NCBI GenBank assembly: GCA_023265625.1
Contig: JAHFST010000003.1
Coordinates: 168,482 to 232,481 of the forward strand
Reading direction: 5' to 3'
Length of the DNA stretch: 64,000 nt
Origin: Deltaproteobacteria bacterium
GTDB taxonomy: Bacteria > UBA10199 > JACPAL01 > JAHFST01
Program-made: the position numbers and the translations under genes
Shown here: piece by piece, positions 2,352-29,476 of the stretch
How the letters are laid out: each line of letters starts with the position of its first letter
How positions within the stretch are numbered: the stretch's first letter is position 1
The notes under the pieces: model-generated
What the model saw: only the letters and a program-made list of their open reading frames with translations
What the model was told of the DNA's origin: nothing
The model's database searches: none

Positions 2352-2355
2352 TTTT

Positions 2356-11625: not shown

Positions 11626-11873
11626 TATGAGAAGAATAGGCAAACGATCGAAGTCAAATTCCAAGAAGATCTTCAAGACAAAAACCGCGTCCCGGGTTTT
11701 GGAGGATGCTGTCAGCTTTCACGGGGCCATGGTAGAGGTCAGCGTTCATAATGCCTACAAGTCAAGCTTGTTCGGAGGAGGGTCTCCCATTACGGTCGCC
11801 GCTGAGAGGAGTGTTACTCTGCGGGATTCGAATTTGACGAGAACCATCAATTCTTGGGCCTCACAATTTTGAG

Positions 11874-12665: not shown

Positions 12666-12717
12666 AAAAACCTCGAGCTTCTTGCCTTCCTGACACGATT
12701 TGATATGCTGAAGATCC

Positions 12718-13113: not shown

Positions 13114-13409
13114 AAAAATTGAAAAAATTTAAGGGGCTTTTGCAAAAAGCGGGGGTTCCTGTTTACAAGCTGATCCTCTTTGGTTCTCAAGCCCGAGACA
13201 CGGCCAGACCGGATAGTGATATTGATGTCTGTGTGATCTCTCCCGCCTTAGGTAAGGACCGTCTCAAAGAACGACTTTTTCTGGCCCAACAGGCCCATAC
13301 CATTGATCCGCGTATTGAAGTGGTGGGCTATTCCAAAAAAGACTTTATGCACAATCGTGTCTCGCCTCTGCTCCATCAAATTCGCCTGGAATCGGTGGTT
13401 GTGGAATAA
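13092..13409 (+). CDS. Minimal nucleotidyltransferase (MNT antitoxin)
   Basis: LFGSQARDTARPDSDIDVCV is a classic GS-x(n)-D-x-D NTase motif. Confidence 0.75.
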   Translation: MADKKILKKLKKFKGLLQKAGVPVYKLILFGSQARDTARPDSDIDVCVISPALGKDRLKERLFLAQQAHTIDPRIEVVGYSKKDFMHNRVSPLLHQIRLESVVVE

Positions 13410-14561
13410 TTACACAATCTTTTTCACCCTACCACAGAGTTGCTGGAGAAATACCTCGACCGGGAGACAGAGGATTTCTTTTTGCAACAGGCGTTCTTGT
13501 CCTCGGTAGAGCAAGATGGCTTGGCATTCCGGGTATTCTTGTCGAAATGAGGTGAGCCCCCTGAGATCCTCCGGACGGACGCGCGGGGTGCTCTTGACTT
13601 CTATCGCCCAAAAAATATCGTTGCCATAGATGACAAAATCAACCTCCGTTTGGGCTTGAGTTCGCCAAAAGTACAGTTGATGATCGTCCGCAAAATAAGC
13701 CAGCCAGGCACGTAACTGTTGTGCGACTAGTCCTTCGAGGGCGGCCCCTTCAATCATGCCGGGTCGGTCGAGGGGGCCATGGGGGCGCAGCGATTGATAG
13801 ACACCGGTGTCGAAAAGATAAAATTTGGAGTGGGAGATCACGGCACGCTGACTCCTCTTCGCAAACACCGGTACGCGAAAGGCGAGCAGGAGATCTTCTA
13901 AAATGGTGATATAATTTGTCACCACCTTTCTTTCGACCTCGCATTCCCGGGCGACGTTATTGATATTGAGCACTTCTCCGTGTGAAAAACTGATGGCCTC
14001 GAGGAAGCGTGAAAAGTTTCCCACGTTTCTGACCAAGCCCTCCATTTGAACATCTTCACGCACGTAGAGGGCGACGTAACTCTTCAAAACCTCCGCTGGT
14101 TCGGGGGCGGCCATGACGATTGGGAGTAGTCCGGTTTGTAAAGCTTGTGTTAGCTGAAATTGGGCGCCTAACTCAGCGGCGGCGAAGGGGTGGAGCGTTT
14201 TTAACAGGGCTCGCCCCGCCAACAGATCGACCCCCGTTTTTTTAAGTTTTCGTGCGCTCGACCCGGTTAAGATGAATTTCAACCCCCGTTTTTCTTCAAT
14301 GAGTTGATGAACCACGTCGAGCAGTGCTGGGACCTTCTGAACTTCGTCAATGAGGATGACTTGTTCCGATTGGCCGAATATCGCTTCGCGGAGCCGTTCC
14401 GGTCTGGCGCTGTAGACCCGGTCCGTCTCAGGATCCAGGAGGTCAATGCGGAGGGCCGTAGGAAATTGGTATCGCACCCAGGTCGATTTGCCACTCCCCC
14501 GTGGGCCAAACAAAAAGAAGCTCATCTTCGGATCTTGTAAAAAACGATGTATTGATTCCAT
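13410..14561 (-). CDS. AAA+ ATPase of the AAA_14/DUF4143 family
   Basis: Walker A FGPRGSGKST, Walker B ILIDEVQ, then a long DUF4143-like C-terminal region; 383 aa. Confidence 0.8.
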   Translation of the reverse strand: MESIHRFLQDPKMSFFLFGPRGSGKSTWVRYQFPTALRIDLLDPETDRVYSARPERLREAIFGQSEQVILIDEVQKVPALLDVVHQLIEEKRGLKFILTGSSARKLKKTGVDLLAGRALLKTLHPFAAAELGAQFQLTQALQTGLLPIVMAAPEPAEVLKSYVALYVREDVQMEGLVRNVGNFSRFLEAISFSHGEVLNINNVARECEVERKVVTNYITILEDLLLAFRVPVFAKRSQRAVISHSKFYLFDTGVYQSLRPHGPLDRPGMIEGAALEGLVAQQLRAWLAYFADDHQLYFWRTQAQTEVDFVIYGNDIFWAIEVKSTPRVRPEDLRGLTSFRQEYPECQAILLYRGQERLLQKEILCLPVEVFLQQLCGRVKKIV

Positions 14562-15221: not shown

Positions 15222-15252
15222 CGCAACAGCAGGGCTAGCTCGGACCGATAAT
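15222..15252 (+). promoter_or_regulatory. Sigma-28-like promoter, site D: CGCAACA-N16-CCGATAAT, with a second CCGATACT at 15261
   Basis: Motif family; 44 nt upstream of the 15297 ATG. Confidence 0.5.
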
Positions 15253-15296
15253 CAAAGAGACCGATACTTTTAGGAGTCGGTTAGAGAGACAATTTT

Positions 15297-18278
15297 ATGG
15301 GTGATGGTGACAATTATCTCAATAGCGGTCGAACGACACTTTATCCAAACTTGGATCATCAGGAGTTTGGGCCGAAGACTCCTTTGGATGTGGGGGAATA
15401 CGAACAGTGTCTGGTCAATGATGACGGCAAGGGGCAAACGAAATTTGATTCCGGTTATGAAAAACTCCGTCATGTGGTGATTAATACGGGGGAGCAGGCG
15501 GTGCAATTTTTGGAGCCTGGCAAGGTTTTGGAAGATGGGCAGACTGATCCGACCAAGGGTCAGATGTCCGACCTGCTCTATTCCACTGATGCATTCATAC
15601 TCACTCAGAAATACCCCAACGGTGCCACGGAATCCAAAACCCCATTGGGGACCTGCCATGTGGGGAATCGGTTGTTTGTTTATGAGAAGCATAAAATCTT
15701 TAGCAATGTCATGGGCCCCAATGATTCCATCCCGTTTCAAAAACAAGCAATTAAAGGGCTGACTGCAGAACAGGTGATTAGGATTGTGAAACACCTTAGT
15801 AATCCCTCCCTGTGGAAGTTGGATGGGGGTACTCGGGAAGATAAATTCAAGTACAATCTTTATCTTCGTAATAACGAACTGGATACGGCGTTGGCATTGC
15901 GCTCCTGGATGGAGACAGACGGCAATTTTTCTCCGAAAGGATGTTTCATGATGTCCGATACCACCAAGTGGTTTGGACCGGTTTCATTGGTGATGGGCTT
16001 AGCGGATTATTTTTTTATGGATGAGGACCAAGCGACCTGTCAATCCGTCGAGCAACTTGACGAATACATAAGGCCATTGAGGGATCAACGTTATATGATG
16101 GCGTTGCAAATTGGCGGTATTGCCGTTTCCTCCTTTATTGGGGCCTATACTTTTGTCCCAGGATTTCGTTCTGCGTTCAACCGTCCCTTCAAACTAGCTT
16201 GGCGTGGATTAGTCAAGGGAGTGAAAATGGTTTTCCCATTTTTGCGAGGCGTGGCCAGTACCCCGATGGGCGAGTTTGCGGGGAGGCTTTCTCCCATTAT
16301 GGCCAATCTTTCGGAATTGGCCCGAGAGTATCTCAAAGATCCTGAAGCTTTTCTGAAGAAATACCCCAAAGGGATTCCCACGCTCGATAACCAATGGGCC
16401 AGCGTGGAAGATCTTGTGCCGTCAGGGCATCCCCTGACAGAGGATGTTGATTATGATGACATTATTGCCATCAAAAACACCTTATTGCGCGATAAAAATG
16501 CCAGCCCCTTTGTGACCGGCCCCGCAGGGGATGGAAAGACCTATCTTTGCCTAAAATTCATGTTGTATGCGGCGCGGGGTGATTTAGGTCCGGAATTGCA
16601 GAAGGTGGATTTTTTCAATATCAGCAAAAACATCATCGATGGGCAACCCAAGGAAAGCGATTATTCCAAAGGGATTTACGGAGGTCCTGAAAGATTTGTG
16701 GCCGACCTGAATACGGCGATGGACAAGAGCGCCGCTCAGGGACGGCGGGTGGTGCTTTTTGCGGATGATGGGGCCACCCTGGTGGACGCCGGTGTTCAGG
16801 AAAATCCCGAGCCGGGACAGAGAAAGGCCCCCATTTCTTTCTTAGAATCGGTTTTGAGCAAATCTGCCGGTGGTAATGCCTTCAGCATGCTCCTGACGGC
16901 GACTACCAAAAAGTTCGCGTATGCGGAAGGACGTCAGCCTGACTTTTTCGGACCGACGGGACGTGGGCAGAGAGTTGACAGGCGGCCCAAGACCCAGGAG
17001 CAGGTCATGTCCATTTTGGAAAAGCGGGCGAAGGTTATTGGTCGTAAGTTAAAGATTCAGTTTGGTCCGGGAGCCCTCCAGGAGATTGCCCGGGCCTCCT
17101 ACCAAAAGCTGGGACTCTACAATCCTCGTGCGGCTGAAAATGATCTGGAAAAATTTTCGCGTGAGGCGTTGGAAGAGGGATCGGATCATCTGACTCCTGA
17201 TATGGTTAGACGGTTTGCTACGAAGGATTCCGATAATCGGTTTACCCGCATGATGGCGGATGCATTTTCGGAAGGACTCGATATGGTGCAGGTCCCTGAA
17301 TTTGAGAGGGTGGTGATGGATCGCGTCATTTCTGGGACTGAACCGTCTTTTGAAAAATGGCTCCAAGGTGATCGATCAAAGATTTTGTCGGCCCTCTACA
17401 CCGTTTGGAAGGACAACCCTAATATTCAAGCAACCTTTAAAGATCAGCATGGCCAGAACAACGCCTTTACGGCCTTTGTGGAGAGGGCATTGGGCGATAT
17501 CAATGTAAAACGCGCCATGGATGATGCCTTGTCACGACATGAAGTCATTGCTGGGATGCAGGATAAAGATACGTCCAGAGCCGCCGCCACCGGCCAACCC
17601 GGGAAACCAAATGCTGACCAAGAGAGGGATAGGAGAATGATGAGACAGATTGGTGCTATCTTGCGTACCATCTATCCTGATTTTCAGGATCCCCATTACA
17701 GCGATGTGGTCACCCATTTATCACAAATTCTTCATGAGAACTTGAAAGCGGTCCGAGCTGCTTCAGGGGGAGGTGCCGATGATCCTGTTTCTACGCCTTG
17801 GGTAAGGATGTTGGCCAATCAGGCGATGTCGCAATGGGCGCAAAGCGATCCTAGTTTTGCGGGAATCATGAGCCGATCAACGTCACAGTCCCCTGCACTC
17901 ACTCCTGAGCCCGTTTCACCTCCAGCAGTCTCCGCCGCTCCTGACCTCGCTGCGACCGGAGCCGCTCAACCTGACATGAGCCGTGTAGAGGCCATGACTC
18001 GATTGGCTGTGTATGCTTTTAGTACCCGTGTAGATGGTTGGGGGCAAGTGCCAGGAGAACTTCAGCGGGACATGATTAAGGAGGTTCTGCAGCAAAGAGA
18101 AGTGGGTGGGCTATTTCATGGCGGTCGCGACAGCTTTAGGACTGATTTGACGGAACTTGTTCGATTGACCGATCGGGTGGCTGAGAGTGTGTCACAACAA
18201 GAGAAATCGGTTCGGTTGAGGAAAGAAGAGGAAGTGAAAAAGGCGAGAGAACGTGAGGCTGTGCCGGTTTTCATTTGA
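15297..18278 (+). CDS. Large protein F: conserved novel N-terminal domain (about 145 aa) followed by a ClpA/ClpB-NBD1-like AAA+ module
   Basis: [22 protein letters not shown] aligns with ClpB [39 protein letters not shown] aligns with ClpB ILFIDEIHTLVGAG (Walker B Glu is Asp); N-terminus [25 protein letters not shown] is shared with the 23122 gene. Confidence 0.6.
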   Translation: [993 protein letters not shown]

Positions 18279-18301
18279 TTGCAAAAAATAACAAGTAATG
18301 A

Positions 18302-19354
18302 ATGGGGGGAATTATTATGGGAGAGCCAGGAGATAAATTAGTTGTAGCCACAGATCCTAAATTAGCCCAAGCCCTCTCTGTTTTGGCCGGCCCGCCACCG
18401 GTTCTTCCTTCAGTCGCTCGTGGAGCAAAAGAGAAAACAGATCTTCCTCAAAAGGGACAGGTGCCAGGGGGCGCCGATGAATTTATCTCCGGTCTGGGTC
18501 TAAACGGAAAAACCATTACCACCGGGCCTTTTACCGGATTGTATAAAGATAAATGCAGCGGACGAGGTTCCAACAAGGTTAACGGCTATACCTTTTCTCC
18601 CGACAAACTCCGGGCCATCGGTAACACCTTTTACCCGGCCAACAACGGCGGTTTTGATCACAAAAAAACCTATGTGGTGGATGACGAGACGGGAGACCCG
18701 ACGGGGAATGCCTATATTTGTTTGGATACGGCGGACAAGGCGACGAACGATGCGGCCTTGAAGGCTTTGGATGATAAATGTCCTTTGGGAGATGGGAAAG
18801 AGGAGAAGGCAGAATGTGACGCCATCAAGAAGACTTTTTTAGCGGCGGAACATACGCACGGTTTTTGGGAGGATCATGCGGGCACATTTTATGTCTTTGG
18901 GCTCATGATTCCGGCAGTGGCCTTGGTTGGTGGTGCGCTTTGGAAAGGACCGGCGTTGTTGGCCTCCTGGAGAGGGCGTCCCTCGGTTGTCGCCCGCACA
19001 GAAGGGCAGGCTGCTCGTGTTGTGGCCACCGAAGTGCGCACGGCCGGTGCCGCGGAGCGTCTTGCCGCCGTTGGGGCTCGCGTGGAAGAGACTGCGGCGG
19101 TTGTTGGGGTACGAGAAGTAGCGGCTCTTGAATCTCTAGAAGCTCGTGCTGCAAGTAGATTGCCTAGCGTAGCCAAGGTAGCCGGACTCCTGATCGTGGC
19201 CGGCCTAGCGCTGTTTGGCGGCCCACGGGATGTCTCTGCGGCCGAGTTGCCGAACGAGCCGGGTTATCTAGGCGGTTCCCACCCCGAAGGGGCCAAGGTC
19301 CCAGCGGCCAGCGCTACTAGTCATAATCCCTTTGCTGATGTGTTGGGGGAATAA
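18302..19354 (+). CDS. Protein G: tail-anchored protein with conserved C-terminal module ...VAKVAGLLIVAGLALFGG...HNPFADVLGE
   Basis: The C-terminal 60 aa are about 70% identical to the C-terminus of the 25508 gene product; one C-terminal hydrophobic helix. Confidence 0.5.
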   Translation: MGGIIMGEPGDKLVVATDPKLAQALSVLAGPPPVLPSVARGAKEKTDLPQKGQVPGGADEFISGLGLNGKTITTGPFTGLYKDKCSGRGSNKVNGYTFSPDKLRAIGNTFYPANNGGFDHKKTYVVDDETGDPTGNAYICLDTADKATNDAALKALDDKCPLGDGKEEKAECDAIKKTFLAAEHTHGFWEDHAGTFYVFGLMIPAVALVGGALWKGPALLASWRGRPSVVARTEGQAARVVATEVRTAGAAERLAAVGARVEETAAVVGVREVAALESLEARAASRLPSVAKVAGLLIVAGLALFGGPRDVSAAELPNEPGYLGGSHPEGAKVPAASATSHNPFADVLGE

Positions 19355-19359
19355 GAACA

Positions 19360-19665
19360 CTAAGCCACATGCTTGATCGGGTCCATCTTGATGACGATCT
19401 TGCGCTTCAGGGCGCTGGCGATGCGTTGTAAGATGCTTAAGGAGTGTCCCTCATAGTCGGCATCCTCAAGCCGGGAGATGACCGATTGGGTTGTGCCAAT
19501 TCGTTTGGCCAATTCTCCTTGTGTGAGACCAAGATCTTCACGGACCTTCCGAATCAGCATGGCCACCTGATAATTGACTTTTTCTTCTTCGTAGAGCCTC
19601 TGTAATGCAGGACTTCGCTTGGTTCTTCGTTTTAAAATCTCTAGAGCATTGCTTGTCTTAGACAT
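19360..19665 (-). CDS. XRE-family helix-turn-helix transcriptional regulator
   Basis: ...LGLTQGELAKRIGTTQSVISRLE is a canonical XRE HTH; the start is most likely the internal Met MSKTS (RBS GGAGGG upstream), not the listed 19695. Confidence 0.7.
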   Translation of the reverse strand: MSKTSNALEILKRRTKRSPALQRLYEEEKVNYQVAMLIRKVREDLGLTQGELAKRIGTTQSVISRLEDADYEGHSLSILQRIASALKRKIVIKMDPIKHVA

Positions 19666-19696
19666 GATTAGCCCTCCTTGTCCTTGGTTCCCCATA

Positions 19697-19737
19697 TGTC
19701 TGACAAAAGTAAAATTTAATTTTAAAATTGTCAGACA
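19697..19737. promoter_or_regulatory. 41-bp perfect palindrome TGTCTGACAAAAGTAAAATTTAATTTTAAAATTGTCAGACA (operator) upstream of the XRE gene
   Basis: Perfect inverted 10-mer arms around an AT-rich core; a near copy lies at 27909-27941. Confidence 0.55.
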
Positions 19738-20099
19738 TTAAAAAGTAGCCGTAGCGGCAAACGAACTCTTAGTTTCCCTGGCTGCGCTGTAACGATTGCA
19801 CCCTTCTCAAGCTGTTTTTCGTGGAGTGCGAGGATTTGAAGACACATCGGAGCTTGTTGTTTGGCAGAAATATTTACGAGACGAATAATGCCAGCATGAG
19901 GGCGGCCATAAACCACTGCAAGCTCACCGTAATCTTTGTCAAGTGTGATCAAAATACGCTGCTCTTTTTGAGCGTATGCTAAAATGCTATCATCTCCCGG
20001 ATCTTCGGTCCAATCTCCGGACCAGATAACATCATGACCGGCATCTTGTAAGGTTTTAAGAGCCTTGCCCCAAACACATGTGTCCAGAAGAAGTTTCAC
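19731..20099 (-). CDS. DUF5615-like PIN-fold protein (putative toxin)
   Basis: MKLLLDTCVWGKAL...ILITLDKDYGEL is typical of Mut7-C/DUF5615; overlaps the DUF433 gene by 4 nt. Confidence 0.55.
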   Translation of the reverse strand: MKLLLDTCVWGKALKTLQDAGHDVIWSGDWTEDPGDDSILAYAQKEQRILITLDKDYGELAVVYGRPHAGIIRLVNISAKQQAPMCLQILALHEKQLEKGAIVTAQPGKLRVRLPLRLLFNV

Positions 20100-20350
20100 G
20101 TCTCAGTGTCAACAGGTACAGGTTCAATCCAATCATTTTCGACCAGTTTATGGGCATAAGCCAAACAAGCTTGAATATCCTCGCGTTGTAACCACGGATA
20201 GCCTTCCAAAATAGTTTCCGTGGTGTCCCCTGCAGTGAGCATCCCGAGAATGTGCTCCACCGCAAGACGTCGTCCACGAATAATGGCTTTACCCCCAAAT
20301 ATTTTCGGATTAGCGGTGATTCTTTTTAGTAATTGTTCTTCGTTTAACAT
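20096..20350 (-). CDS. DUF433 protein (putative antitoxin partner of DUF5615)
   Basis: 84 aa, ...AIIRGRRLAVEHILGMLTAGDT... is typical of DUF433. Confidence 0.6.
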   Translation of the reverse strand: MLNEEQLLKRITANPKIFGGKAIIRGRRLAVEHILGMLTAGDTTETILEGYPWLQREDIQACLAYAHKLVENDWIEPVPVDTET

Positions 20351-20606
20351 TTTTAATACCTCCTAACCCAATGCTATAACATATCAAAGTCAGCAGTTTT
20401 TTAAAACACTTGATTTCAAACACTCAACAATACTCACTGTTTGAGGCATAATTAAAAATAGCAAAATTGCTATAATGTGTCAATGAAACATTATTAGAAT
20501 ACTTGTTTTGTGTTGACGAGGTCATGGACGCCTCTTAAGCTATTCGCCCCCTTTCCTTATTGCTAACCTGCTGTTTTTATTTAATAAATAAATAGATTCA
20601 AATTGC

Positions 20607-20637
20607 CGCAACAGGACCCCTCCCTGGAACCGATAAT
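20607..20637 (+). promoter_or_regulatory. Sigma-28-like promoter, site E: CGCAACA-N16-CCGATAAT
   Basis: Motif family; the -10 ends 6 nt before the 20644 ATG, so a leaderless transcript is possible. Confidence 0.5.
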
Positions 20638-20643
20638 AGGTCC

Positions 20644-23079
20644 ATGGGGGATCCTAATCCAACGACGGTTGTATCCAATACACGTACCTGCTCACCGCCT
20701 TACGTGTGTGAGGTCGAGGGCGATTTTGGCTTCACCGGAATTGATTCAGGTCCGGTCCTGACTCAGCCGCTTGATACCGGTGACCAAGTGGTGCCACCGC
20801 CGCCTCGCGTGGCATCAACCCCGCCTGCCGCCGTCAAACTTTGGGGTGAGACCGAGGCCTTAACCGAACCATTTTTGCAGGACATGCGCACGAAGATCGC
20901 CAGGGTCCCGGCGGAACAAGGTCCATTTTTTCCGTGGTTTCGTGCCGATGACCGAAAACTTCAGGTGGGGAAAAGTTACTCATTTGCGTCCTATTTTTCT
21001 TCACTTCCGGAGCATTTCCAACTCCTGTTTGCGAAGGTGAAGGATCTCCCCGGGGTGGTTTTTTCTCCCCAGTATTTGTTGATCGATGGGAAACAGGTCC
21101 CGGTGGTTTATGTCTCGCAGGTTCGGGTGGAGGATAATCCGTTTGGGATTGATCCGTTGTTAAATCAATTGCCGGGCGCGGTAGGGGCGTATCGCAATAC
21201 GCCCGTACAGGATGCCGCGTTGTTGCCGCCGGAGGCGCAGGTTATTCGGAATTTAGGGGGCTATCCTATCGGGGTCGTAATGGCCCCGGAAATTGCGCGG
21301 GTGATGTACACGGCAGATGAATTGGTGGTTGCAAAACATGACTCTGATTTTCCCGTGCCACAAGATTTATTCCCTGTAGGGGCGCCGCTTGCTGCGCCCC
21401 CTTTCTCGGCAACCCTTTCTTTAGGTTCAATACCCAAAGTTCACGCCCCCCGCTTCGAGGCGGCGGCCGATCTGGGAAGCAATTTCACACCGGCTGGTTG
21501 GGGTTACCTGGCCGATGCCAATGATCTTCCTGCCTACTATTCCTTGATGCATGGCGAAGCAGAGGTTTTCTCAGCAGAAGGGTCCGCAAATCTTTCAGTC
21601 AATACGGCATTTGTCGGGGGGATTACGATCGAAGCGCGTGGCATTCGTTCTGCGGGCGCTTTTTTGGCACGATCGAGTCGTGTCCTGGCCCCGTTTCTTA
21701 AGCTGGCGGGCCGCACCCTTGGGATTGCCACCATGGGGGGTGTCCCTGATATCCCCTTCGATGTGGGATTGGCTGTTTATGAACCGGGTGATCCTAACGA
21801 ACGTCTCTGGCTCCTGGTGGAACAAAATCGAGACGCGGCGTTGGGCTTTGGTTCCTTCCTGATCCCGGTCAAATGGTTGGATACGATGAAGCGCAATTCC
21901 GATGAGAGCGATGAACAGAGTCACGTTCGCGTCATCCAATCAACAGCAGATGGGTATGTGATGGATACCGACCAACTCGGTGAGGTCTTGGACGAGTCAT
22001 TGGAAAAGATGTTTATGGCGGAGCTTCTCGCTTCGGGAAAAATTGACTTTCAATTGTTGGAGGATGGCGGGCTGAAAAAAATTGTCCCGAATGAAGGAAA
22101 ATTTAGGCTGGACATGATGGATGTCCGGCGTGGAACTTGGAATCTATTTTCTTCGGATAAAAGGATCCATCAAAGTGTTGCCGCACTTTACGAACTTCTT
22201 GAGTTTACCGGGTTTAGGGCAAAGCGCGGGGAGGCGGTCAAGGAGTTGCTCAATTCCAATGGAGAACCTTATCACCCGACCCACTTTCGAGCCTATTGCC
22301 TGGCCAAGATCAGCGAATGGAAGCGGCAGGCCCAGGAATCACTCAAGAGGGAATTAGTGAGCGTTGGTTTGGGGGGATACGATGTGACTGGAAAGTTTGT
22401 TAATTATTACGGCACACTCAATCATTACACGCCCGCGCAACAGTCCCTGATCGACAAAGAGGAACAGGTCAAGCCAGCCTATCAGTCTGGGGTGAAAATT
22501 GCCTCAGCGTCAAACCCACAGGGCTCTTGGACCCTTCGCATCCGCATGCTTGATATCATGCAGCGTACCCTCATTTTTGCAGAACAGCATTCGGAAACAG
22601 CGGATGCTCAATTGGAGGCCCTGGCACCCGCGGATCGTCACGCGGTTGATCAGGCCCTCGGACAATTGCGGAGGGATCCATTAAAAGGGGATAGTCGATT
22701 GTATACCCCTTGGAGCCCTGAAGATCAGGCGGAGAAAACAACGTTGATTCGTGACATCGCTCGGGGACTGACTCAGAATGAGCTGGATCTCCCTCTCCCC
22801 TTTGATTGGCAGCGCCAATACAAAATGGCGAGAACCACCAGCGCGTCTTTTGGCGACATCTCCGCAGCCTATATGTCTCAAGGAGGCTCCAACCCCCTGC
22901 AAGCCGAGAAAAAAGCCCGGGCCCACGAAGCATTGGACTCGGCCCAACGCTACGTCTGGAAGGATCGCAGCCTGACTGTGGACAATAAATTTCGCATTGA
23001 TTATTCCCTCGATGGAGACGCCTCGCCGCAGGGTGGTGGGGAAGGTAGCATCGTTATTCGACAGATTGTGAAATTGTAA
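20644..23079 (+). CDS. Large hypothetical protein I (811 aa)
   Basis: Long ORF starting MGDPNPTT...; contains an in-frame REP (21181-21208, encoding VGAYRNTPVQ). Confidence 0.5.
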   Translation: MGDPNPTTVVSNTRTCSPPYVCEVEGDFGFTGIDSGPVLTQPLDTGDQVVPPPPRVASTPPAAVKLWGETEALTEPFLQDMRTKIARVPAEQGPFFPWFRADDRKLQVGKSYSFASYFSSLPEHFQLLFAKVKDLPGVVFSPQYLLIDGKQVPVVYVSQVRVEDNPFGIDPLLNQLPGAVGAYRNTPVQDAALLPPEAQVIRNLGGYPIGVVMAPEIARVMYTADELVVAKHDSDFPVPQDLFPVGAPLAAPPFSATLSLGSIPKVHAPRFEAAADLGSNFTPAGWGYLADANDLPAYYSLMHGEAEVFSAEGSANLSVNTAFVGGITIEARGIRSAGAFLARSSRVLAPFLKLAGRTLGIATMGGVPDIPFDVGLAVYEPGDPNERLWLLVEQNRDAALGFGSFLIPVKWLDTMKRNSDESDEQSHVRVIQSTADGYVMDTDQLGEVLDESLEKMFMAELLASGKIDFQLLEDGGLKKIVPNEGKFRLDMMDVRRGTWNLFSSDKRIHQSVAALYELLEFTGFRAKRGEAVKELLNSNGEPYHPTHFRAYCLAKISEWKRQAQESLKRELVSVGLGGYDVTGKFVNYYGTLNHYTPAQQSLIDKEEQVKPAYQSGVKIASASNPQGSWTLRIRMLDIMQRTLIFAEQHSETADAQLEALAPADRHAVDQALGQLRRDPLKGDSRLYTPWSPEDQAEKTTLIRDIARGLTQNELDLPLPFDWQRQYKMARTTSASFGDISAAYMSQGGSNPLQAEKKARAHEALDSAQRYVWKDRSLTVDNKFRIDYSLDGDASPQGGGEGSIVIRQIVKL
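21181..21208. repeat. REP family 1 palindrome GTAGGGGCGTATCGCAATACGCCCGTAC inside the coding sequence of protein I
   Basis: Same unit as 2356 and 3494 with two substitutions; in frame. Confidence 0.7.
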
Positions 23080-23084
23080 ATCCT

Positions 23085-23115
23085 CGCAACATTGACCTGC
23101 TCATCGCCCGATAAT
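23085..23115 (+). promoter_or_regulatory. Sigma-28-like promoter, site F: CGCAACA-N16-CCGATAAT
   Basis: Motif family; lies in the 42-nt I-J intergenic gap; the -10 ends 6 nt before the 23122 ATG. Confidence 0.5.
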
Positions 23116-23121
23116 GTGAAT

Positions 23122-25500
23122 ATGGGCGACAATGACGATTACCTCAATAGCGGTCGAACGGCTCTTTATCCAAATCTAGACCATCAAGAATTCGGGTCCA
23201 GGACTCCCTTGGATGTGGACGGGTACGAACCATGTTTGGCTGATGACACCGGTTATGAAAAGCTCCGGCACGTGGTGATAAACCAGGGAGAGCAGGCGGT
23301 CCAATTCTTGAAACCTGGCAAGGCCTTGGAGGCTGGACAGGCGGATCCGACTCATGCTCAGATGCCGGACCTGATTTATTCCACCGATGCGTTTACGCTG
23401 ACCCGGAAATATCCCAATGGTGCCACGGAATCCAAGACCCAATTGGGGACCTGTCATGTGGAAAATCGGTTGTTTGTGTATGCACGACATCCCATCTTGA
23501 GCAAGATTTGTCCCGACCCTGGAAAGATGGCCGTCTCCAATTACCAGTCAGTGGCGGGATCACAAGGCCTCGGCCCCGGGGAAGTTGTTAAGCTGGCTTC
23601 AGCCCTGGTTGGTTCTGCCGATCCCTCCCAATCGAGCTTATTTTGCGTGACTGAGCCGGATCCGAATCGGGGGATGAAGAGGGATTTTCAGTTCGAGAAG
23701 CCGAGTTTGACCAATATCAAGACCTACCTGGACTTTCTGAAGAAGCTCAGATCCGAGCAAGCCGATGTGGCGCTCATCAATGGGTTTGAAAATTTCATCA
23801 GCCCTACAAAGCTCCAATACGATCAGATGGATGAAAATACGGGTTGGCCAGGATGGTTCAAGATGTTGGTTAGTACTGTGGCAGGAGCGGTTATTGGCAC
23901 TGGTCTTTGGTTTCTCTTCATGTGGTTGAAAGAAAAGAAGAGCAATCCGTTTGATAATAAAATTTTCTTGGAGAAAACGGTGACAGACAAGGCTCAGGGT
24001 TTCAAGGGGGTGCAGTGCAAGGCCCCCGAGTCAGTGCATAAATATGTGCGTGACATGGTGGACGTCTTTCGAGTCAAACGGGGGCTACGCCGGCTTGGCC
24101 CGACAGGAACTAACAAAGGCTACAGTATTGACATGCTCATTTGCGCGATCGTGAACAACCAATTGAAAGAATTGGATTCTGAGGTGGCAAAAAAATTACC
24201 TCCCAATACACAGATTAAATCGATGTCATCCATGAATTTGAAGGGCGGTGCGGGGTCGTGGAAAGATAGAAAGGCCACGATTCAGGCGGAAGTGTTGAAT
24301 TTGGGGGCAAACGGACCACTCCTTCTCATCCTAGAGGAGGCCGATGCCTTTCTCGAAAAAAATGCCCATGGAGAAATAGACCAAGAAGCCTTGGAATTTT
24401 TCAGGAATCTCTTGACGCCTCTTGACCCCGAGACCTCGAACCCAGCCTACAAGAATATTTTTATCATCATCGATACGAGTAGGCCCCATGAGGAGGATTT
24501 CACTCAACATCTTCCGGATATCTTTCGCAGGACCTCAATCGTTGAAAGTATTCCTCCTGTGGTTGAGGATTTGGATGATTTCCTTAGGTCACGCATTGAG
24601 AGGAAGTTGGACGATGGGTTTACAACCCTAAAGGGGAAGGTTAATTTCACAGATAGCGCCATTCGTGCGCTGTCCGTATTGGGTATCGATTCTAAAGAAG
24701 GTTCGCCTCCCTCCTGCAATGGCAACATGTTGGATTTTTTTCTGGCTTATTTGGTAAAAAACGGAATTTCGGGGCAAGTAGATGAAGGAAAAGTCGTTGA
24801 CTTTATCGTCTTTCGATCTAAAAAAATAACAACCCCCGAAGTTCGCGCACTGCTTGATCAAGCCAAGCGAGATCCCCGATTTTTACAAGATCGTATTAAC
24901 CAGGCGTTTTATGCGGCTTATCAACCGGTTCAGGGGCGTGTGGACCCGCTTAGGACCGGTACCGCCGCGCCTTCGAACCTATCTGAGGTTGCCACTGCCG
25001 AGGAAAAGGTCGACCCCGAAGCCGAACAATACGCCCTCACCACTCTCCTCTATTTGGCCATCGCCGAGAGTGATCCCACTTATTCGAGGTTGGGCCATGA
25101 TGAGAAAGAGACTCGTTTTAGCAACACCGTGGGGCTCCTCCGGCACGACGGGGCCTTGAATCCTGGCCAAGAGGACTACGCGGTTCGGGTGTCGGTCCAG
25201 TTGGCCCTGAGGGATCGGGTGACAGGGTTTGATCAATTGCCACAATCCCTGAAACAATCCCTCTTTCAACGCTCCTATGATTCCTGGAGCGGCCCAAGCA
25301 ACATCCTGGTGCGCCGTCCCGGCAGTTTCAAACTCAAGGGCGGGGATGGGGTGACCTTGATGATCGAGGCCCATGTCGACAAGGTGGTTAAGGAACGAAA
25401 GATTGAGATCGAGGCCCAGGCCGGTGGGGTCCGCTATGACCTCTTGGAGCCCGCGCAGGCCAAGCAACAACGCGCACTGCGCAGAAAATTTGGTCTCTGA
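23122..25500 (+). CDS. Protein J: paralogue of F (conserved N-terminal domain) with a degenerate ClpB-like AAA+ module
   Basis: MGDNDDYLNSGRTALYPNLDHQEFG is about 80% identical to F over 145 aa; P-loop is degenerate (GPTGTNKG); LLLILEEADAFL is Walker-B-like. The true start is taken as 23122, not the listed 23092, which would overlap the promoter. Confidence 0.55.
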   Translation: MGDNDDYLNSGRTALYPNLDHQEFGSRTPLDVDGYEPCLADDTGYEKLRHVVINQGEQAVQFLKPGKALEAGQADPTHAQMPDLIYSTDAFTLTRKYPNGATESKTQLGTCHVENRLFVYARHPILSKICPDPGKMAVSNYQSVAGSQGLGPGEVVKLASALVGSADPSQSSLFCVTEPDPNRGMKRDFQFEKPSLTNIKTYLDFLKKLRSEQADVALINGFENFISPTKLQYDQMDENTGWPGWFKMLVSTVAGAVIGTGLWFLFMWLKEKKSNPFDNKIFLEKTVTDKAQGFKGVQCKAPESVHKYVRDMVDVFRVKRGLRRLGPTGTNKGYSIDMLICAIVNNQLKELDSEVAKKLPPNTQIKSMSSMNLKGGAGSWKDRKATIQAEVLNLGANGPLLLILEEADAFLEKNAHGEIDQEALEFFRNLLTPLDPETSNPAYKNIFIIIDTSRPHEEDFTQHLPDIFRRTSIVESIPPVVEDLDDFLRSRIERKLDDGFTTLKGKVNFTDSAIRALSVLGIDSKEGSPPSCNGNMLDFFLAYLVKNGISGQVDEGKVVDFIVFRSKKITTPEVRALLDQAKRDPRFLQDRINQAFYAAYQPVQGRVDPLRTGTAAPSNLSEVATAEEKVDPEAEQYALTTLLYLAIAESDPTYSRLGHDEKETRFSNTVGLLRHDGALNPGQEDYAVRVSVQLALRDRVTGFDQLPQSLKQSLFQRSYDSWSGPSNILVRRPGSFKLKGGDGVTLMIEAHVDKVVKERKIEIEAQAGGVRYDLLEPAQAKQQRALRRKFGL

Positions 25501-25507
25501 TGGAGGA

Positions 25508-26677
25508 ATGATGGGAATTGGAAACACAGCGATATCTATCATTGGGAATCTAGGATTTACCAAGGGGCCTAATTACACCGAGCTTCTGGAGAAGAAAGGC
25601 ATTTCACTTGCCTTACAAAGCTATGTGAAAACTCAGGGAGTGAAGCCGGAACAATTTGCCCAATTCATTGTATGGGCTGGGGAGCGAGACAAGACACCGG
25701 AACTCCTGGACCAGTTTCTCAAGGGGCAGAACAAGGGACAAGAGATCCAGGCGGGTGTTTATCGGACATTGCATCTTGGGACCGATGGTTTTTTGCAGGA
25801 TGGTGATTATTCAGGTCATGCCGTCGCGCAGTGTGAGGCCCCGCAGTTCAAGGAATTGTCGGGGATATGGAACCCCGATCAGGTTGCCGAACTTTGCCGC
25901 TACTTGGGTGTGACGGAACCTGCAAATTGTTTCTTAAGTCTCAATGCGGCGCAAGCAGGAAAGGTTTGTTTTGAGGCCAATCAACCGGGCAGAAATCGCG
26001 AGGTGCTGGAGCGGGTGGATGGTTTTATGTGGTCTCACGGCGATTGCCCCTTCGATTGGAGTCACTGTGATGCGATCCAAGATGCGGAACAAGAGGCCTT
26101 GGGGGTCAAAGATTTTTTGCAGAGAATTTGGGAGGATCTTCCTGGAACTCTGCTGACTGTGGTTGGCTTTGGTTTGTTGGGGTGGTGGTTTAAGGATCGA
26201 TTGCCTCCTTCTGGGAGAGGGGGCGGAGGGGAGGGTGGCGGCAATAAAGAGGGGCCACCCAAGGGCCCAAGTCCTGAGCCAATTTTCATTCCGCACCTAC
26301 TGCCTGCCCCGAAACCCATCACGAACCCAAGTCGATTGTTACCCGAACATTCTGGTGGTTCTTCGGCGGATGTTGATACGAAGGCGCTGTTCGAGACGGG
26401 TATTATCGTTGCCACGATGGCAACCGCTTACAAGGTTTATCAGGCGGCGGCGGGGGGTGCCACGATTCGTGTCGCGAGTGGATTGCCTGGAATGGCCAAG
26501 GTTGCCGGACTCGTGATGGTGGCGGGCTTGTCACTGTTTGGCGGCTCACGGGAGGCGGCTGCGGCCGAATTGCCGCAGGAGCCAGGATACCTGCTTGGGA
26601 ACCACCCCGAAGGGGTCAAGGTACCAGTGATTAGACCTATGAGTCATAATCCCTTTTCTGATGTCCTGGGAAAATGA
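25508..26677 (+). CDS. Protein K: paralogue of G by C-terminus (...MAKVAGLVMVAGLSLFGG...HNPFSDVLGK), different N-terminal domain
   Basis: C-terminal module conserved with G at protein and DNA level (about 75% nt identity); start placed 8 nt after the J stop. Confidence 0.5.
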   Translation: MMGIGNTAISIIGNLGFTKGPNYTELLEKKGISLALQSYVKTQGVKPEQFAQFIVWAGERDKTPELLDQFLKGQNKGQEIQAGVYRTLHLGTDGFLQDGDYSGHAVAQCEAPQFKELSGIWNPDQVAELCRYLGVTEPANCFLSLNAAQAGKVCFEANQPGRNREVLERVDGFMWSHGDCPFDWSHCDAIQDAEQEALGVKDFLQRIWEDLPGTLLTVVGFGLLGWWFKDRLPPSGRGGGGEGGGNKEGPPKGPSPEPIFIPHLLPAPKPITNPSRLLPEHSGGSSADVDTKALFETGIIVATMATAYKVYQAAAGGATIRVASGLPGMAKVAGLVMVAGLSLFGGSREAAAAELPQEPGYLLGNHPEGVKVPVIRPMSHNPFSDVLGK

Positions 26678-26752: not shown

Positions 26753-27907
26753 TTAGCCTCCGGTAATTTTGGTCCAATGTTTGTGTTGCAGTGGGTCTGA
26801 CAACGCGGGGCGTTCACTCGGAGTGACGGCCAACAGGGTGACTTTTTTATCGGAAAGGTCTTGAAAACGGAGCAGATTGCGCACGTGGTCCAAGGTCACG
26901 GTATGGGTTAGTTTGATTTCGATGGCCTGGAGGTGTTCCCCCTGGTCGACCAGCAGATCCACTTCCAGGCCGTCATGGGATCGCCAAAAGTAGAGCGGTG
27001 CTTGGCGAGCCTGGTTGAGGTGGGCCTTGCGAAATTCCTGAATGATGAAATTCTCAAAGAGAGGTCCGGCCATCGGTCCCGAGATGAGGGTTTCCGGTGA
27101 TCTGATCTTTAAAAGGTGGCAGGCCAGGCCGGTGTCCACAAAATAGATCTTGGGCGAGCGGACGACCCGTTTGCCAAAATTTTGAAAGTAGGGTGGCAGT
27201 AGATAAATGACAAAGGCGGCTTCCAGTGCGGAAATCCACTCCTTGATCGTGGGCGATTTTACCCCCACTTCTGCGGCCAGTTTATGCATGTTGAGTTCCT
27301 GCCCGATACGGGCCGCCAACAGCTGCAGGAGGGCCTCAAAGCTGCGCAGATCCCGGATGGCGATTTGCGAGCGGAGGTCTCGCTCCAGGTAGGTGTTGAT
27401 GTAGGAGGAAAACCAGAGATCCAGGTTCAAATCGGGCGTGGTTTGCAGCTGTGGGTACATGCCGCGCAACAAGAGGTTGGCGAGATCCGGTTGTGTGTGC
27501 GGGGCGATTTCCGGCCAAGAGAAGGGGAGCAACTGAAAGATGGCGACCCGGCCCGAGAGGCTTTCCGTGACCCCCTGCATCAGATGAAACTGATGGGAAC
27601 CGGTGAGCACGACCTGGCCGGGGGTCTTATTACGGTCGACGAATTCCTTGACGTAAGGCAGCAGCCCCGGGGCTTCTTGGATTTCGTCGATGAGCAACCC
27701 GGGAGCCGAGTCGACAAAAAAAGCACGCGGATCCCGCTCCGCCCGCTGTCGCACATCCAGGGCATCCAGCGTGACATAGCGGTGGTGAGGGAAGGTGTGG
27801 CGGAGTAACTCCGTCTTACCAGTCTGCCTGGGACCAGTCGCCAACAGGACGGGGAAGTGCCGGCTGGCCTCTTTGATAGGATCTGACAGATTTCTTTTCC
27901 AATACAT
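26753..27907 (-). CDS. AAA+ ATPase of the AAA_14/DUF4143 family (second copy)
   Basis: Walker A LATGPRQTGKTEL, Walker B LLIDEIQ, DUF4143-like C-terminal region; 384 aa. Confidence 0.8.
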   Translation of the reverse strand: MYWKRNLSDPIKEASRHFPVLLATGPRQTGKTELLRHTFPHHRYVTLDALDVRQRAERDPRAFFVDSAPGLLIDEIQEAPGLLPYVKEFVDRNKTPGQVVLTGSHQFHLMQGVTESLSGRVAIFQLLPFSWPEIAPHTQPDLANLLLRGMYPQLQTTPDLNLDLWFSSYINTYLERDLRSQIAIRDLRSFEALLQLLAARIGQELNMHKLAAEVGVKSPTIKEWISALEAAFVIYLLPPYFQNFGKRVVRSPKIYFVDTGLACHLLKIRSPETLISGPMAGPLFENFIIQEFRKAHLNQARQAPLYFWRSHDGLEVDLLVDQGEHLQAIEIKLTHTVTLDHVRNLLRFQDLSDKKVTLLAVTPSERPALSDPLQHKHWTKITGG

Positions 27908-27908
27908 C

Positions 27909-27941
27909 TGACAATATTAAAATTTAACTTTAAAATTGTCA
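27909..27941. promoter_or_regulatory. Palindrome TGACAATATTAAAATTTAACTTTAAAATTGTCA directly upstream of the DUF4143 ATPase start; near copy of the 19697 operator
   Basis: 27 of 33 positions are identical to the core of the 19697-19737 palindrome. Confidence 0.5.
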
Positions 27942-28001
27942 AATATATAATTTTATTATGTTTTAATGAAAATATCAGGATTTTAAATAAAATCCAGAAC
28001 A

Positions 28002-28032
28002 CGCAACTCTACCCCCCGGGCGTGACGATAAT
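28002..28032 (+). promoter_or_regulatory. Sigma-28-like promoter, site G: CGCAACT-N16-ACGATAAT
   Basis: Motif family; 20 nt upstream of the 28053 ATG. Confidence 0.4.
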
Positions 28033-28052: not shown

Positions 28053-29462
28053 ATGGGTGATGGTGTTGATAAATGTAAGGTGACCATAGCTTTTCAGGGA
28101 GATATCGGTCTCAAAGCAGACGACATTGCAAGGCTCAACAATGATTCTTCAGGAGGGGTTCATTTTGGTTTAGAGAAAGATGGCAAGTTTCTAACCGTTG
28201 AAGGTATTGAATGCGACAATAATGCTGATTTGTCCCAAGAAGAATACAACAATGTCGTGAATGCGTTGCCTCCGGACATGAGGAAAAAGACGATTGTCTA
28301 CTTACAGGGGGGCAGAAAGGGCCAGTCTGATTTTGAGTTCAATGGGCAAAATAGAGGTCAGAAAAATGCTTTGAAGGAGTTTCGTGAGAAATTCAGTTCA
28401 GGAGATAGCGCAGCTGGAGTGACAGGAACGGCAAAACGATTCCTGGATAAGAGCGGGCTAAAATTAGGTGAGAAAATTGATACCCCCAAAAAGGCATGGA
28501 CCCATGCCTTCTACGATTCGACGAATGATACGTTAAATCAAATGACCGATCAGTTGTTCGGGGCGGCGCAGGTCTTGTCTGGAGATCCCAAATATACGGC
28601 GTTTGCAGGGATGGATAAAGATATTAAAGTGACCAAGTCGGGACAAGAGACCCTGTTTGATTACAAAGGGATCGTGGCCGGTTTTACGAAGATCAAGGAT
28701 TGTGCCATCGATATGCCGGATATTTCCCCGGAAAAGTTGCAGGAGATCACCAAGTTTTTTGAGGCCGCCAAGCGGACTGATAAGAGCGGCAACCCAACCT
28801 TGCTCAACAACTGGCTCGACCTGGCCAAGGATATTACCGATGCGAACGATCCGATGGTGAATCAGAAGGATCCGACCGGTAAGGGGAAGGTTGTTCGAGG
28901 GGATCTGGATCGTACCAAGTTTTCCAGCAATGAAATCCGCTGGTTGGCCAAACGGTGGTATGGCGACAAATACACGGGTTCTGCCGAGCAGATCCGCCAG
29001 ACGGCCAGGAGTGTCATGCTCTTTTTTGGCATTGTGGATTTTCATGCCAAGATGAAGGCAAGTGCAGGGGTTGTGAGTCTGAAATATAAGGATCCTAAAT
29101 TTCAGGATGCTAAATATGGGTTTAATTTTCACGTTGAGAAGAAGGATGGGAAGATTCTTGTGACAGATATTAGACCTGATAAAGATGATAAAAAGGACGC
29201 AGATTTGATGGCGAGCAATGAAATCGCGCTTAACCATCGGAAAATTTTACAGCATCTCATTGACGAGGATTCATTAATTATTGAAGCGGATGCAGCAGAT
29301 CGCGGCCTATTGTTCGAGGCCTTGGGACTGGATGGGGATGGAAAGATTAAGAAAGCACAACCTAAAAAGGCGACACAAAATGACGAGGAAACGGATACTG
29401 ACAATCCGTTTCAGGCTTGGTGGGCTAAATTTAACGATGCCTCAAGCGCCGCAGTCGAATGA
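28053..29462 (+). CDS. Hypothetical protein M (Lys/Asp-rich, about 469 aa)
   Basis: The start is probably MGDGVDK at 28053 (RBS GAGGAG 6 nt upstream), not the listed 28047; lower GC than surroundings. Confidence 0.5.
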   Translation: MGDGVDKCKVTIAFQGDIGLKADDIARLNNDSSGGVHFGLEKDGKFLTVEGIECDNNADLSQEEYNNVVNALPPDMRKKTIVYLQGGRKGQSDFEFNGQNRGQKNALKEFREKFSSGDSAAGVTGTAKRFLDKSGLKLGEKIDTPKKAWTHAFYDSTNDTLNQMTDQLFGAAQVLSGDPKYTAFAGMDKDIKVTKSGQETLFDYKGIVAGFTKIKDCAIDMPDISPEKLQEITKFFEAAKRTDKSGNPTLLNNWLDLAKDITDANDPMVNQKDPTGKGKVVRGDLDRTKFSSNEIRWLAKRWYGDKYTGSAEQIRQTARSVMLFFGIVDFHAKMKASAGVVSLKYKDPKFQDAKYGFNFHVEKKDGKILVTDIRPDKDDKKDADLMASNEIALNHRKILQHLIDEDSLIIEADAADRGLLFEALGLDGDGKIKKAQPKKATQNDEETDTDNPFQAWWAKFNDASSAAVE

Positions 29463-29476
29463 GAGGGTAAGTAAAA

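Follow-up and report, generated by a model that had tools for sequence, protein, structure and literature searches.

The 64,000 nucleotides of Deltaproteobacteria bacterium DNA analysed here (contig JAHFST010000003.1 of assembly GCA_023265625.1, positions 168,482 to 232,481; referred to below as the window) carry two look-alike gene pairs on the plus strand, F-G and J-K, each consisting of an AAA+ protein gene followed by the gene of a membrane partner. The feature is real and not a product of chance, and the duplicated two-gene cassette described in an earlier account made from the DNA letters alone (the sequence-only reading) stands. F (15297-18278, 993 aa) is a membrane-anchored, single-ring AAA+ protein of the type of the first nucleotide-binding domain (NBD1) of ClpB, and J (23122-25500, 792 aa from its ATG) is its paralog from a divergent subfamily; the two diverged anciently within a very rare protein family. 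We give about an even chance to the view that F and J are membrane AAA+ remodellers that, together with their partners G and K, would serve a T3SS (type III secretion system) of the Myxococcus type, by a mechanism that we infer.

The look-alike segments were first delimited in protein and DNA. BLASTP aligned F 1-138 with J 1-129 at 99 identities in 138 positions (72%, E 1e-60) with one 9-residue indel and found no significant match between F and J beyond this segment. The underlying DNA (15296-15421 and 15446-15706 against 23121-23246 and 23244-23504) was 77-79% identical, close to the value of about 80% given by the sequence-only reading. This N-terminal module, termed N1 (15297-15710 in F), is predicted to be periplasmic. 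The C-terminal module that had been noticed in G and K was likewise confirmed: their last 69 residues share 47 identities (68%, E 3e-27), and the DNA is 77% identical between 19144-19352 in G and 26467-26675 in K. In G the module comprises the second transmembrane (TM) helix, TM2, and the tail AAELPNEPGYL...SHNPFADVLGE. The shared DNA begins exactly at the start codon of F and J and ends exactly at the stop codon of G and K, so the look-alike segments form the outer ends of each two-gene unit. The mechanical open reading frame of J opens at a TTG (23092), upstream of the ATG at 23122. G begins at 18302 or 18317 and ends at 19354; the likely start is 18317 (MGEPGD), which has a Shine-Dalgarno-like run and agrees with a public gene call of 345 aa. 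K, which begins at 25508 or 25511 and ends at 26677, likely starts at 25511 (MGIGN, 388 aa), with GGAGGA 6 nt upstream. Only 8-11 nt separate the stop of J from the start of K, and the Shine-Dalgarno-like sequence of K lies just past the J stop.

The family to which F and J belong is tiny, with about 12 members among 1.84 billion representative proteins. An exhaustive HMMER profile search of that collection returned 20 proteins at E <= 1e-3 and 10 at E <= 1e-10, two of the latter being the queries F and J themselves, and one extra member was found in locus L058 besides these matches. A word-indexed search of 5.8 billion proteins returned protein P0002 as the sole outside relative. Pfam, NCBIfam and PADLOC gave nothing above threshold for F or J, and neither Pfam nor NCBIfam holds a model of the family. 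A search of GTDB genomes with two N-terminal peptide patterns, a weak negative, did not find the family, and in 51 related loci no F-family gene turned up at 10 kb or less from sctR. The search profile was built from three sequences including J, so the match of J to that profile is circular; independent evidence of its membership came from BLASTP, in which the N-region of J matched P0002 (29%, E 5e-14) and the part after the TM helix matched P0016 (48.9 bits, E 3.6e-9). The statement that F and J diverge completely after the N-terminal domain therefore had to be abandoned, since J keeps a TM helix and an AAA+ module and matches P0002 and P0016. The aligned members follow a common plan, namely an N-region of 240-365 residues, one hydrophobic helix, an AAA+ module and a long helical tail.

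The suggested affinity of F to ClpB NBD1 was borne out by profile and by structure. With the family profile, NBD1 of Thermus ClpB (1qvr residues 131-473) scored E 3e-44, and Hsp104, ClpC, ClpE and ClpA came next; P0002 alone matched ClpB NBD1 fragments (2p65) at E 3e-4. In the AlphaFold2 (AF2) model of full-length F, with a mean predicted local distance difference test score (pLDDT) of 70.5, a five-stranded AAA+ core and lid (about aa 386-626) is followed by helices only (all-alpha tail, about aa 634-993); the strands of the alpha/beta core lie between residues 403 and 561, and only helices occur after residue 567. All top Foldseek matches of this model were ClpC1, ClpC, ClpA, Hsp104, ClpB or PTEX-Hsp101 chains (4e-11 to 4e-9, fold probability 1.00). 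The architecture of class I Hsp100 proteins was not found in F or J: neither has a Pfam Clp_N or AAA_2 match, and the AF2 model contains one alpha/beta core. The only NCBIfam match of F was TssH, at 17 bits against a cut-off of 885 (E 1e-3). Lacking a second NBD and a Clp_N domain, F and J are not ClpB proper, and by its architecture the ATPase is a new variant within a superfamily already known. The C-terminus of F (18258-18275) and that of P0010 (...KKEIPAIFI) have a common short hydrophobic tag after a charged helix.

The two ATPase motifs quoted for F by the sequence-only reading, and the degenerate P-loop quoted for J, are present as stated. In F, Walker A is GPAGDGKT (16518-16541, aa 408-415), in which G411 and K414 are invariant in the family alignment, and Walker B is VVLFADDG (16749-16772, aa 485-492); F is the sole member with DD at this position, where eight of the other ten members have DE. 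In J, the P-loop reads GPTGTNKG (24097-24120, aa 326-333) and Walker B LLLILEEAD (24319-24345, aa 400-408). A Walker A of the form GxxxxGK[ST] is thus present in F and missing from J, from P0016 (GASGALKG) and from the L058 paralog, and a Walker B of the form hhhhDE with its catalytic glutamate is found in neither F (LFADDG) nor J (LILEEAD). In the alignment, an arginine equivalent to R556 of F, a candidate arginine finger, is invariant across the family, and the position of the aromatic pore loop reads DYSKGIYGG in F and KYRG in P0014 and is without tyrosine in J. J, P0016 and a tandem paralog in L058 (13590-16934 of that locus, where two J-type genes stand in tandem) form a subfamily in which the P-loop lysine is kept before a glycine end (NKG, LKG or GKG), Walker B is EE and a motif RR.xIVE.IPP occurs. 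The same degenerate motifs, xKG and EE, occur in two genomes, which suggests a stable non-canonical or inactive form of the ATPase rather than decay.

The topology of F and J can be predicted from their N-regions. An AF2 model of F 1-268 built with 11 family sequences reached a pLDDT of 75 and a predicted TM score of 0.68, with means over 10-residue blocks of 65-94, most of them 81-94, across residues 11-130; N1 matched no fold in the PDB. Behind N1, at about aa 150-207, F has a beta-alpha-beta-beta-alpha module, of which P0002 and P0008 carry two copies; by sequence, J retains the first module of P0002 and F the second. Hydropathy places one TM helix at aa 269-287 of F (16101-16157; flanking charge 0 on the N-terminal and +3 on the C-terminal side) and one at aa 248-266 of J, and one hydrophobic helix was detected in 10 of 11 members, with charge more positive on its C-terminal side. 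Cysteine makes up 1.1-2.3% of the N-region against 0-0.57% elsewhere, and 10 of 11 members have four or six cysteines there, which are gained and lost pairwise in the alignment (E.C with LG.C, HP.L..C with (F/Y)C..P, DGC with ACS). Cysteines that appear and vanish in pairs are the usual mark of disulfides. Because of the paired cysteines and the more positive charge after the helix, there is a fairly strong case that F and J are oriented N-out/C-in, which would place the AAA+ ring on the cytoplasmic face.

Tail anchoring of G and K by a single helix, as had been proposed, does not hold, since each has two hydrophobic segments followed by a 43-residue hydrophilic tail. G consists of a head with four cysteines, TM1 (aa 191-209), a loop rich in Ala, Arg, Glu and Val, TM2 (aa 285-302) and the tail; K has a head with six cysteines, TM1 (aa 213-227), a Gly/Pro-rich loop, TM2 (aa 328-345) and the tail. 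The second hydrophobic segment reads VAKVAGLLIVAGLALFGG, and the TM helices of both proteins are quite hydrophobic (hydropathy 1.9-2.05). The case for a head-out, loop-in, tail-out topology is again fairly strong. The two heads had been described as unrelated, which is not entirely so: jackhmmer also aligned a juxtamembrane stretch, C(D)AI...WED. Among the proteins encoded at the same position in other loci, the partner of P0010 in L006 has a head homologous to that of G (E 1e-85), those in L003, L059 and L061 make up another sequence group, and the remaining ones have in common the architecture and short motifs only (GPF.G....C, and KCEAL before TM1). Most G-like heads have four to six cysteines and two have two. 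The tail module had no relative in JGI metagenomes, nor in the collection of 5.8 billion proteins, the latter a weak negative because G and K themselves were not returned; the partner in L061 contains a faint echo of it (..AVFGGDAKASELPATY). A class I chaperone of a T3SS effector is a small (about 130 aa), acidic, soluble protein encoded beside the effector. G and K, at 345 and 388 aa, are two-TM membrane proteins with cysteine-rich heads and not small chaperones, and an effector/chaperone pair, one of the two comparisons drawn by the sequence-only reading, does not describe them; nor does an effector/immunity pair, as Pfam, NCBIfam and PADLOC revealed no toxin or immunity families and G and K are not small immunity proteins.

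Pairing of the two genes is conserved. The lack of co-conservation had been named as grounds for giving up the paired-cassette idea; this objection does not arise, as an F-like gene is directly followed by a G-like gene in seven of nine other loci (L001, L003, L004, L005, L006, L059 and L061). In the other two loci the arrangement differs: L060 has its next TM protein two genes further along, and in L058 a TM protein follows the second J-like gene. G and K are the cognate downstream partners of F and J. The pairs form part of a larger cassette with four families in it, the 28053-like, 29477-like, F-like plus G-like, and H-like (genes without a letter are named by their first position), which as a whole is undescribed. 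It is complete and contiguous in L001 and L005, where a gene of 330-470 aa, a 29477-like gene of 313-362 aa, the F-like gene, the G-like gene and an H-like gene of 755-1032 aa follow one another. The pair of 28053/29477 type precedes the F-like gene in those two loci and lies further downstream in L006. In the window the cassette is split: F-G is followed by an opposite-strand insert (19360-20350, toxin-antitoxin-like, with an HTH_3 regulator, DUF5615 and DUF433 by contig gene calls and Pfam), then by H, J-K, an AAA_14/DUF4143 gene, and the genes at 28053-29462 (MGDGVDK...) and 29477-30565 (MDFYGFE...), both on the plus strand. H (20644-23079, plus strand, 811 aa, MGDPNP...) is an orphan at the position equivalent to that of the 755-1032 aa gene after the G-like gene; no homolog of it was detected in 5.8 billion proteins, and the H-position genes of L001 and L005 are equally orphan.

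Two AAA_14/DUF4143 ATPase genes on the minus strand, 28% identical and matching the PADLOC defence candidate PDC-S01, flank the pairs, one just upstream of F (13410-14561) and the other just downstream of K (26753-27907); genes of the same type stand before P0010 in L006 and at the end of the L058 cluster. A 51-nt repeat (19688-19738 and 27896-27946, 82% identical) holds the palindrome ATGTCTGACAA...TTGTCAGACAT and lies where the minus-strand HTH gene (19360-19695) and the AAA_14/DUF4143 gene at 26753-27907 begin; it is probably a shared operator.

The left end of the window encodes sctQ (FliM-like), a FliN-like and a FliO-like gene, sctR, sctS and sctT (9-3497, plus strand, by Pfam), and these are the only T3SS genes in it. 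SctR passed the cut-offs of NF009438 (255.5 against 179) and TIGR01102 (243.7 against 208.6) and failed that of the fliP model TIGR01103 (202.8 against 217.45). Its closest homologs in 185,579 species genomes fall into two groups: metagenome-assembled genomes of uncultured "Deltaproteobacteria/Pseudomonadota" (60-75% identity) and the non-flagellated Myxococcus, Pyxidicoccus, Archangium and Vitiosangium (58-64%). A flagellar origin of these genes was rejected on the SctR and FliP cut-offs and on relatives that include non-flagellated Myxococcus. Judged by these matches, the system is the basal, non-flagellar T3SS of the 'Myxo' group of Abby and Rocha 2012 (PMC3459982), and would be of the kind now referred to as the needle-less T3SS (T3SS*). 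The needle-less T3SS is required for prey lysis by M. xanthus, and both its effectors and its route out of the periplasm are unknown (PMC12075869, PMC12428579). In L008, the closest complete genome, the cluster contains SctJ-, SctL-, SctN- and SctP-like genes and a weak SctI match.

The cassette is syntenic with sctT in L001 and L006. In related genomes, the genes downstream of sctT encode proteins like those at 31952 and 33540 and then chaperone-like proteins with tetratricopeptide repeats (TPR); in the window and in L006, about 25 kb with F, G, H, J, K and others lies between sctT and these genes. The cassette's 29477 protein and the 31952 and 33540 proteins next to the T3SS are paralogs, and proteins of this type are likely core substrates of this kind of T3SS. 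The three (29477-30565, 31952-33505 and 33540-35393) share a C-terminal domain of about 150-180 residues, which is encoded directly downstream of sctRST in about 20 related loci beside small TPR proteins; the TPR genes of the window lie at 35487-36149 and 37263-37808, and the small TPR proteins resemble class II T3SS chaperones.

A common promoter motif further ties the island to the secretion system. The pattern GCAACN{15,20}CGATA occurs eight times in the window against 0.51 expected, and six copies lie just upstream of plus-strand island genes: 7727-7752 (before 7776), 9791-9818 (before 9844), 15223-15252 (GCAAC-N18-CCGATAAT, upstream of F), 20608-20637 (before H; also a copy of a DNA repeat), 23086-23116 (before J) and 28003-28030 (before 28053). 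The other copies are at 57487-57514 (minus strand) and 61359-61385. The copies before H and J end 6 and 5 nt, respectively, ahead of the start codon, which suggests leaderless or near-leaderless transcripts and, in the case of J, supports the ATG at 23122 as the start. In other loci the motif precedes P0002 and its G-like and H-like genes, P0009, P0010 and several other island genes, and F-, G- and H-like genes preceded by it were found in L001, L005 and L006; each of ten T3SS loci from Myxococcus, Pyxidicoccus, Archangium and Vitiosangium also has it, as a single copy on the same strand. In its -10 part, CCGATAAT, the motif is similar to the textbook -10 element of FliA/sigma-28, GCCGATAA. 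The T3SS cluster of L008 encodes a FliA/WhiG-like sigma factor (E 1.6e-40), whose 139 bits fall below the family cut-off of 189.6. Because the motif is common to these genes and to T3SS loci, and because a sigma factor is encoded in the L008 cluster, we regard F-G, H, J-K and 28053-29477 as predicted members of a T3SS regulon.

On these data, a membrane remodeller at the T3SS could operate as follows. F and J would, with reasonable likelihood, be anchored in the membrane with the AAA+ ring in the cytoplasm, N1 and the heads and tails of G and K being periplasmic. A hexameric ring might then grip and thread the disordered cytoplasmic loop of the partner, or T3SS substrates, much as HSP101 feeds the PTEX pore or ClpV serves the T6SS (type VI secretion system), an analogy that we offer tentatively. 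Several observations weigh against a remodeller of this kind. With DD in F and a degenerate P-loop and EE in J, both may be poor ATPases; having no canonical catalytic motifs, they may hydrolyse ATP slowly or act as holders. Known routes hardly account for large N-terminal domains (190-365 aa), lacking a signal peptide, on the outer side of the membrane; passage through the T3SS itself is one possibility. The sigma-28 assignment of the promoter motif rests on its resemblance to GCCGATAA, a weak echo in L061 was all that the other partners showed of the G/K tail module, the cassette lies away from T3SS genes in L005 and L058, and the island also holds toxin-antitoxin and defence-candidate genes. 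The components and their context are solid, and the mechanism is still conjecture.

The N-termini of the island proteins are the main support for a different view, in which F, G, H, J and K would themselves be substrates of the needle-less T3SS, either membrane-targeted effectors or translocon-like proteins, with portable N-termini that would act as export signals and moderately hydrophobic TM helices that would insert only once exported. In the window, seven of the 11 tallied island genes start with MG (F, G, H, J, K, 28053 and 36153) and four with M-[ED]-x-[WY]-G-[FY]-E (7776, 29477, 31970 and 33540). By our own tally of about 49 orphan island genes from related loci and the window, 15 start with M..[WY]G[FY]E and 20 with MG, whereas one of about 45 ordinary neighbour genes starts with MG. 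The heptapeptide, in the form M-[EDNQS]-x-[WY]-G-[FY]-E, heads at least three unrelated types of protein in T3SS-associated islands of the uncultured clade: F-family proteins (P0007 and, in L058, the second J-like gene), TM proteins like G (L058 17013-18404 and L060 3737-4744) and coiled-coil proteins beside TPR genes. Outside the window it was found at L001 8302, L003 234 and 5071, L004 198, L006 1053, 12106 and 14161, L008 13834 and 16636, L017 14287, L058 13590, 17013 and 20008, and L060 3737. Such portable N-termini could be a targeting or export tag. The sequence-only reading, sound on the paired cassette, had missed these signatures together with the T3SS context and the shared sigma-28-like promoter. 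N-myristoylation of the MG N-termini was rejected: mostly Asp or Glu follows the glycine, and the PROSITE-type motif excludes both at this position.

We consider export of the five proteins as substrates to be doubtful, if well worth weighing. It would explain how cysteine-rich N-domains without a signal peptide leave the cytoplasm, and the T3SS-type promoter motif before the genes fits it, as does the fact that the effectors of the needle-less T3SS in Myxococcus are still unknown (PMC12075869). Set against it, an ATPase needs ATP, so that the AAA+ part of 700 residues would have to reach a cytoplasm, and delivery across a target membrane is difficult to imagine; the hydropathy of the G and K helices is also high. 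In addition, the signal character of the N-termini is read from a sequence pattern, and the heptapeptide is confined to the uncultured clade, none having been found in the Myxococcus loci. A more ambitious version of the membrane remodeller, that the cassettes supply the missing working parts of a needle-less T3SS (a ClpB-like motor in the inner membrane, its docking domain in the periplasm, membrane partners, sigma-28-like co-regulation and a portable export tag on many island proteins), appears to us unlikely. If true, it would supply that secretion system with a motor of a new kind and, for the first time, with a set of substrates defined by sequence.

It is quite improbable that the genes belong to an independent conflict system, such as polymorphic toxin/immunity or anti-phage defence, that landed in a variable island beside the T3SS by accident. 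The flanking AAA_14/DUF4143 genes with their PDC-S01 match, the toxin-antitoxin pairs interspersed in the window and in L001, L004, L005, L006 and L058, the high variability of heads and N-domains between orthologs, and the position of L005 and L058 away from T3SS genes would all suit such a system. No toxin, nuclease or immunity domain was found, however; the PADLOC result for F was no more than P-loop noise, and G, H, J and K had no match there. Moreover, the promoter motif is common to T3SS loci in many genomes, the 29477-like member of the cassette is a paralog of conserved T3SS-adjacent proteins, and L058 comes from the same assembly as the T3SS locus L017.

How the two pairs came to share their outer ends was examined by comparing the parts of each protein separately. 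With the N-region of F as query, J was the best match (205 bits) and P0012 the next (74 bits); with the part after the TM helix, P0002 was best (295 bits, 42%), P0007 next (206 bits) and J last (E 9.7). The corresponding part of J was closest to P0016 (48.9 bits). P0010, from L006, whose gene order is like that of the window, has the C-terminal tail motif of F and a different N-domain, and its partner has a head homologous to that of G and a different C-terminus. These incongruent relationships, which uphold the terminal reassortment proposed by the sequence-only reading, indicate that F/G and J/K are paralogous cassettes of long standing, between which N1 and the tail module were exchanged at a later time. 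Between F and J, N1 shows 1.11 synonymous substitutions per site (dS) and 0.13 nonsynonymous ones (dN; dN/dS 0.12); for the G/K tail the values are dS 0.55, dN 0.21 and dN/dS 0.38. There is fairly strong reason to conclude that recombination moved both modules between the cassettes and that purifying selection has maintained them since, and the dS values show that the exchange was not recent. Recent gene conversion, or the use of the shared segments as homology arms for cassette swapping as a current process, was rejected, since the segments are too diverged (dS 1.1 and 0.55; DNA 77-79%).

Plain tandem duplication of one F-G pair, followed by fast divergence outside two constrained modules, would make recombination unnecessary, and the two cassettes do have the same gene order and orientation, lie 7.8 kb apart and, from a dS of about 1.1 in N1, could stem from an old event. 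We think it improbable nonetheless: the part of F after the TM helix is closest to proteins of other organisms, with J last; J is closest to P0016, with which it has an NKG/LKG P-loop and an EE Walker B in common; and the head of G is homologous to that of the P0010 partner, to K only over a short juxtamembrane stretch. F and J thus parted earlier than those lineages. Under exchange by recombination, then, terminal reassortment has taken place in a membrane ATPase and its partner, and not in an effector/immunity or effector/chaperone pair. The exchanged modules are predicted to be periplasmic and stand at the outer ends of the two-gene unit, so they may form a common docking surface; N1 and the G/K tail might conceivably dock onto one another, or both onto a single periplasmic part of the secretion machine.

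Further genes surround the T3SS and the island. After sctT, at 3531-5288, lies a PMT_2-type glycosyltransferase gene, at the position where the M. xanthus locus has sctU (FlhB-like); no sctU was seen in the window. Between the T3SS genes and F, at 9842-13409, lies a run of small defence or toxin-antitoxin-like genes, including an RlaP nucleotidyltransferase (11874-12665, Pfam) and overlapping small-gene pairs at 10497-11227 (minus strand) and 12718-13409 (plus strand). Public gene calls assign NTP_transf_2/Polbeta domains to the gene at 13092-13409, and in our own judgement the small-gene pairs are putatively nucleotidyltransferase/HEPN-like. Right after the substrate and chaperone genes, the minus strand (37908-41557) encodes a sigma-54 activator with an FHA domain like the cytoplasmic one of YscD and a PEGA-domain Ser/Thr kinase, possible regulators of the T3SS.

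The island offers concrete candidates for co-regulation with a T3SS, comprising a new ClpB-derived ATPase architecture, an ectodomain of unknown fold and conserved membrane partners. The promoter motif and the two N-terminal signatures can be used to mine for further substrates. The two pairs also show, as a clean case from nature, a matched exchange of domains at both outer ends of a two-gene unit, which points to an interaction surface.

Among known proteins, the F family is most like the NBD1 of ClpB, ClpC, ClpA and Hsp104, with which it has in common the linker motif GxxLTxxAxxGxLDxVxG before the P-loop, Walker A, a Walker B that is DE in most members and, judged from the alignment, a KYRG-type pore loop in some (TKYRGDLEER in P0014) and an RRF arginine region. 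Unlike these proteins, it has one nucleotide-binding domain, with no NBD2, Clp_N or recognisable middle domain, is TM-anchored behind a cysteine-rich, probably extracytoplasmic region and ends in an all-helical tail of 350 residues, F having DD for DE and J a degenerate P-loop. Two ClpB-derived ATPases, ClpV (TssH) in the T6SS and HSP101 in the PTEX translocon of Plasmodium, act as dedicated motors of secretion or translocation machines; the weak TssH match of F and the presence of PTEX Hsp101 among its Foldseek matches recall them, and the likeness is one of possible mode of action and not of membership, both being soluble two-ring proteins. FtsH, Msp1/ATAD1 and Bcs1 are membrane-anchored, single-ring AAA+ proteins of the classic AAA clade and not of the Clp NBD1 type. 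F would resemble them in its N-terminal anchor, its one ring on the cytoplasmic face and its membrane-protein clients, for which the exposed disordered loops of G and K are candidates, but it is without a protease domain, and its large disulfide-type ectodomain is unlike any of theirs.

The T3SS itself resembles the needle-less system of Myxococcus in SctR (58-64%) and in the TPR chaperone-like genes and promoter motif found downstream of sctRST, and differs in that members of the F, G and H families are absent from the Myxococcus loci up to 10 kb from sctR and in that N-termini of the form M-x-x-W-G-F-E are confined to the uncultured clade. Finally, the exchange recalls the terminal reassortment of type III effectors, in which, too, a conserved N-terminal module stands before C-terminal parts that are unrelated or very distantly related, and the histories disagree; here, however, the exchanged module is a folded and probably periplasmic domain of a membrane ATPase, and it is accompanied by a matching exchange at the C-terminus of the neighbouring gene.

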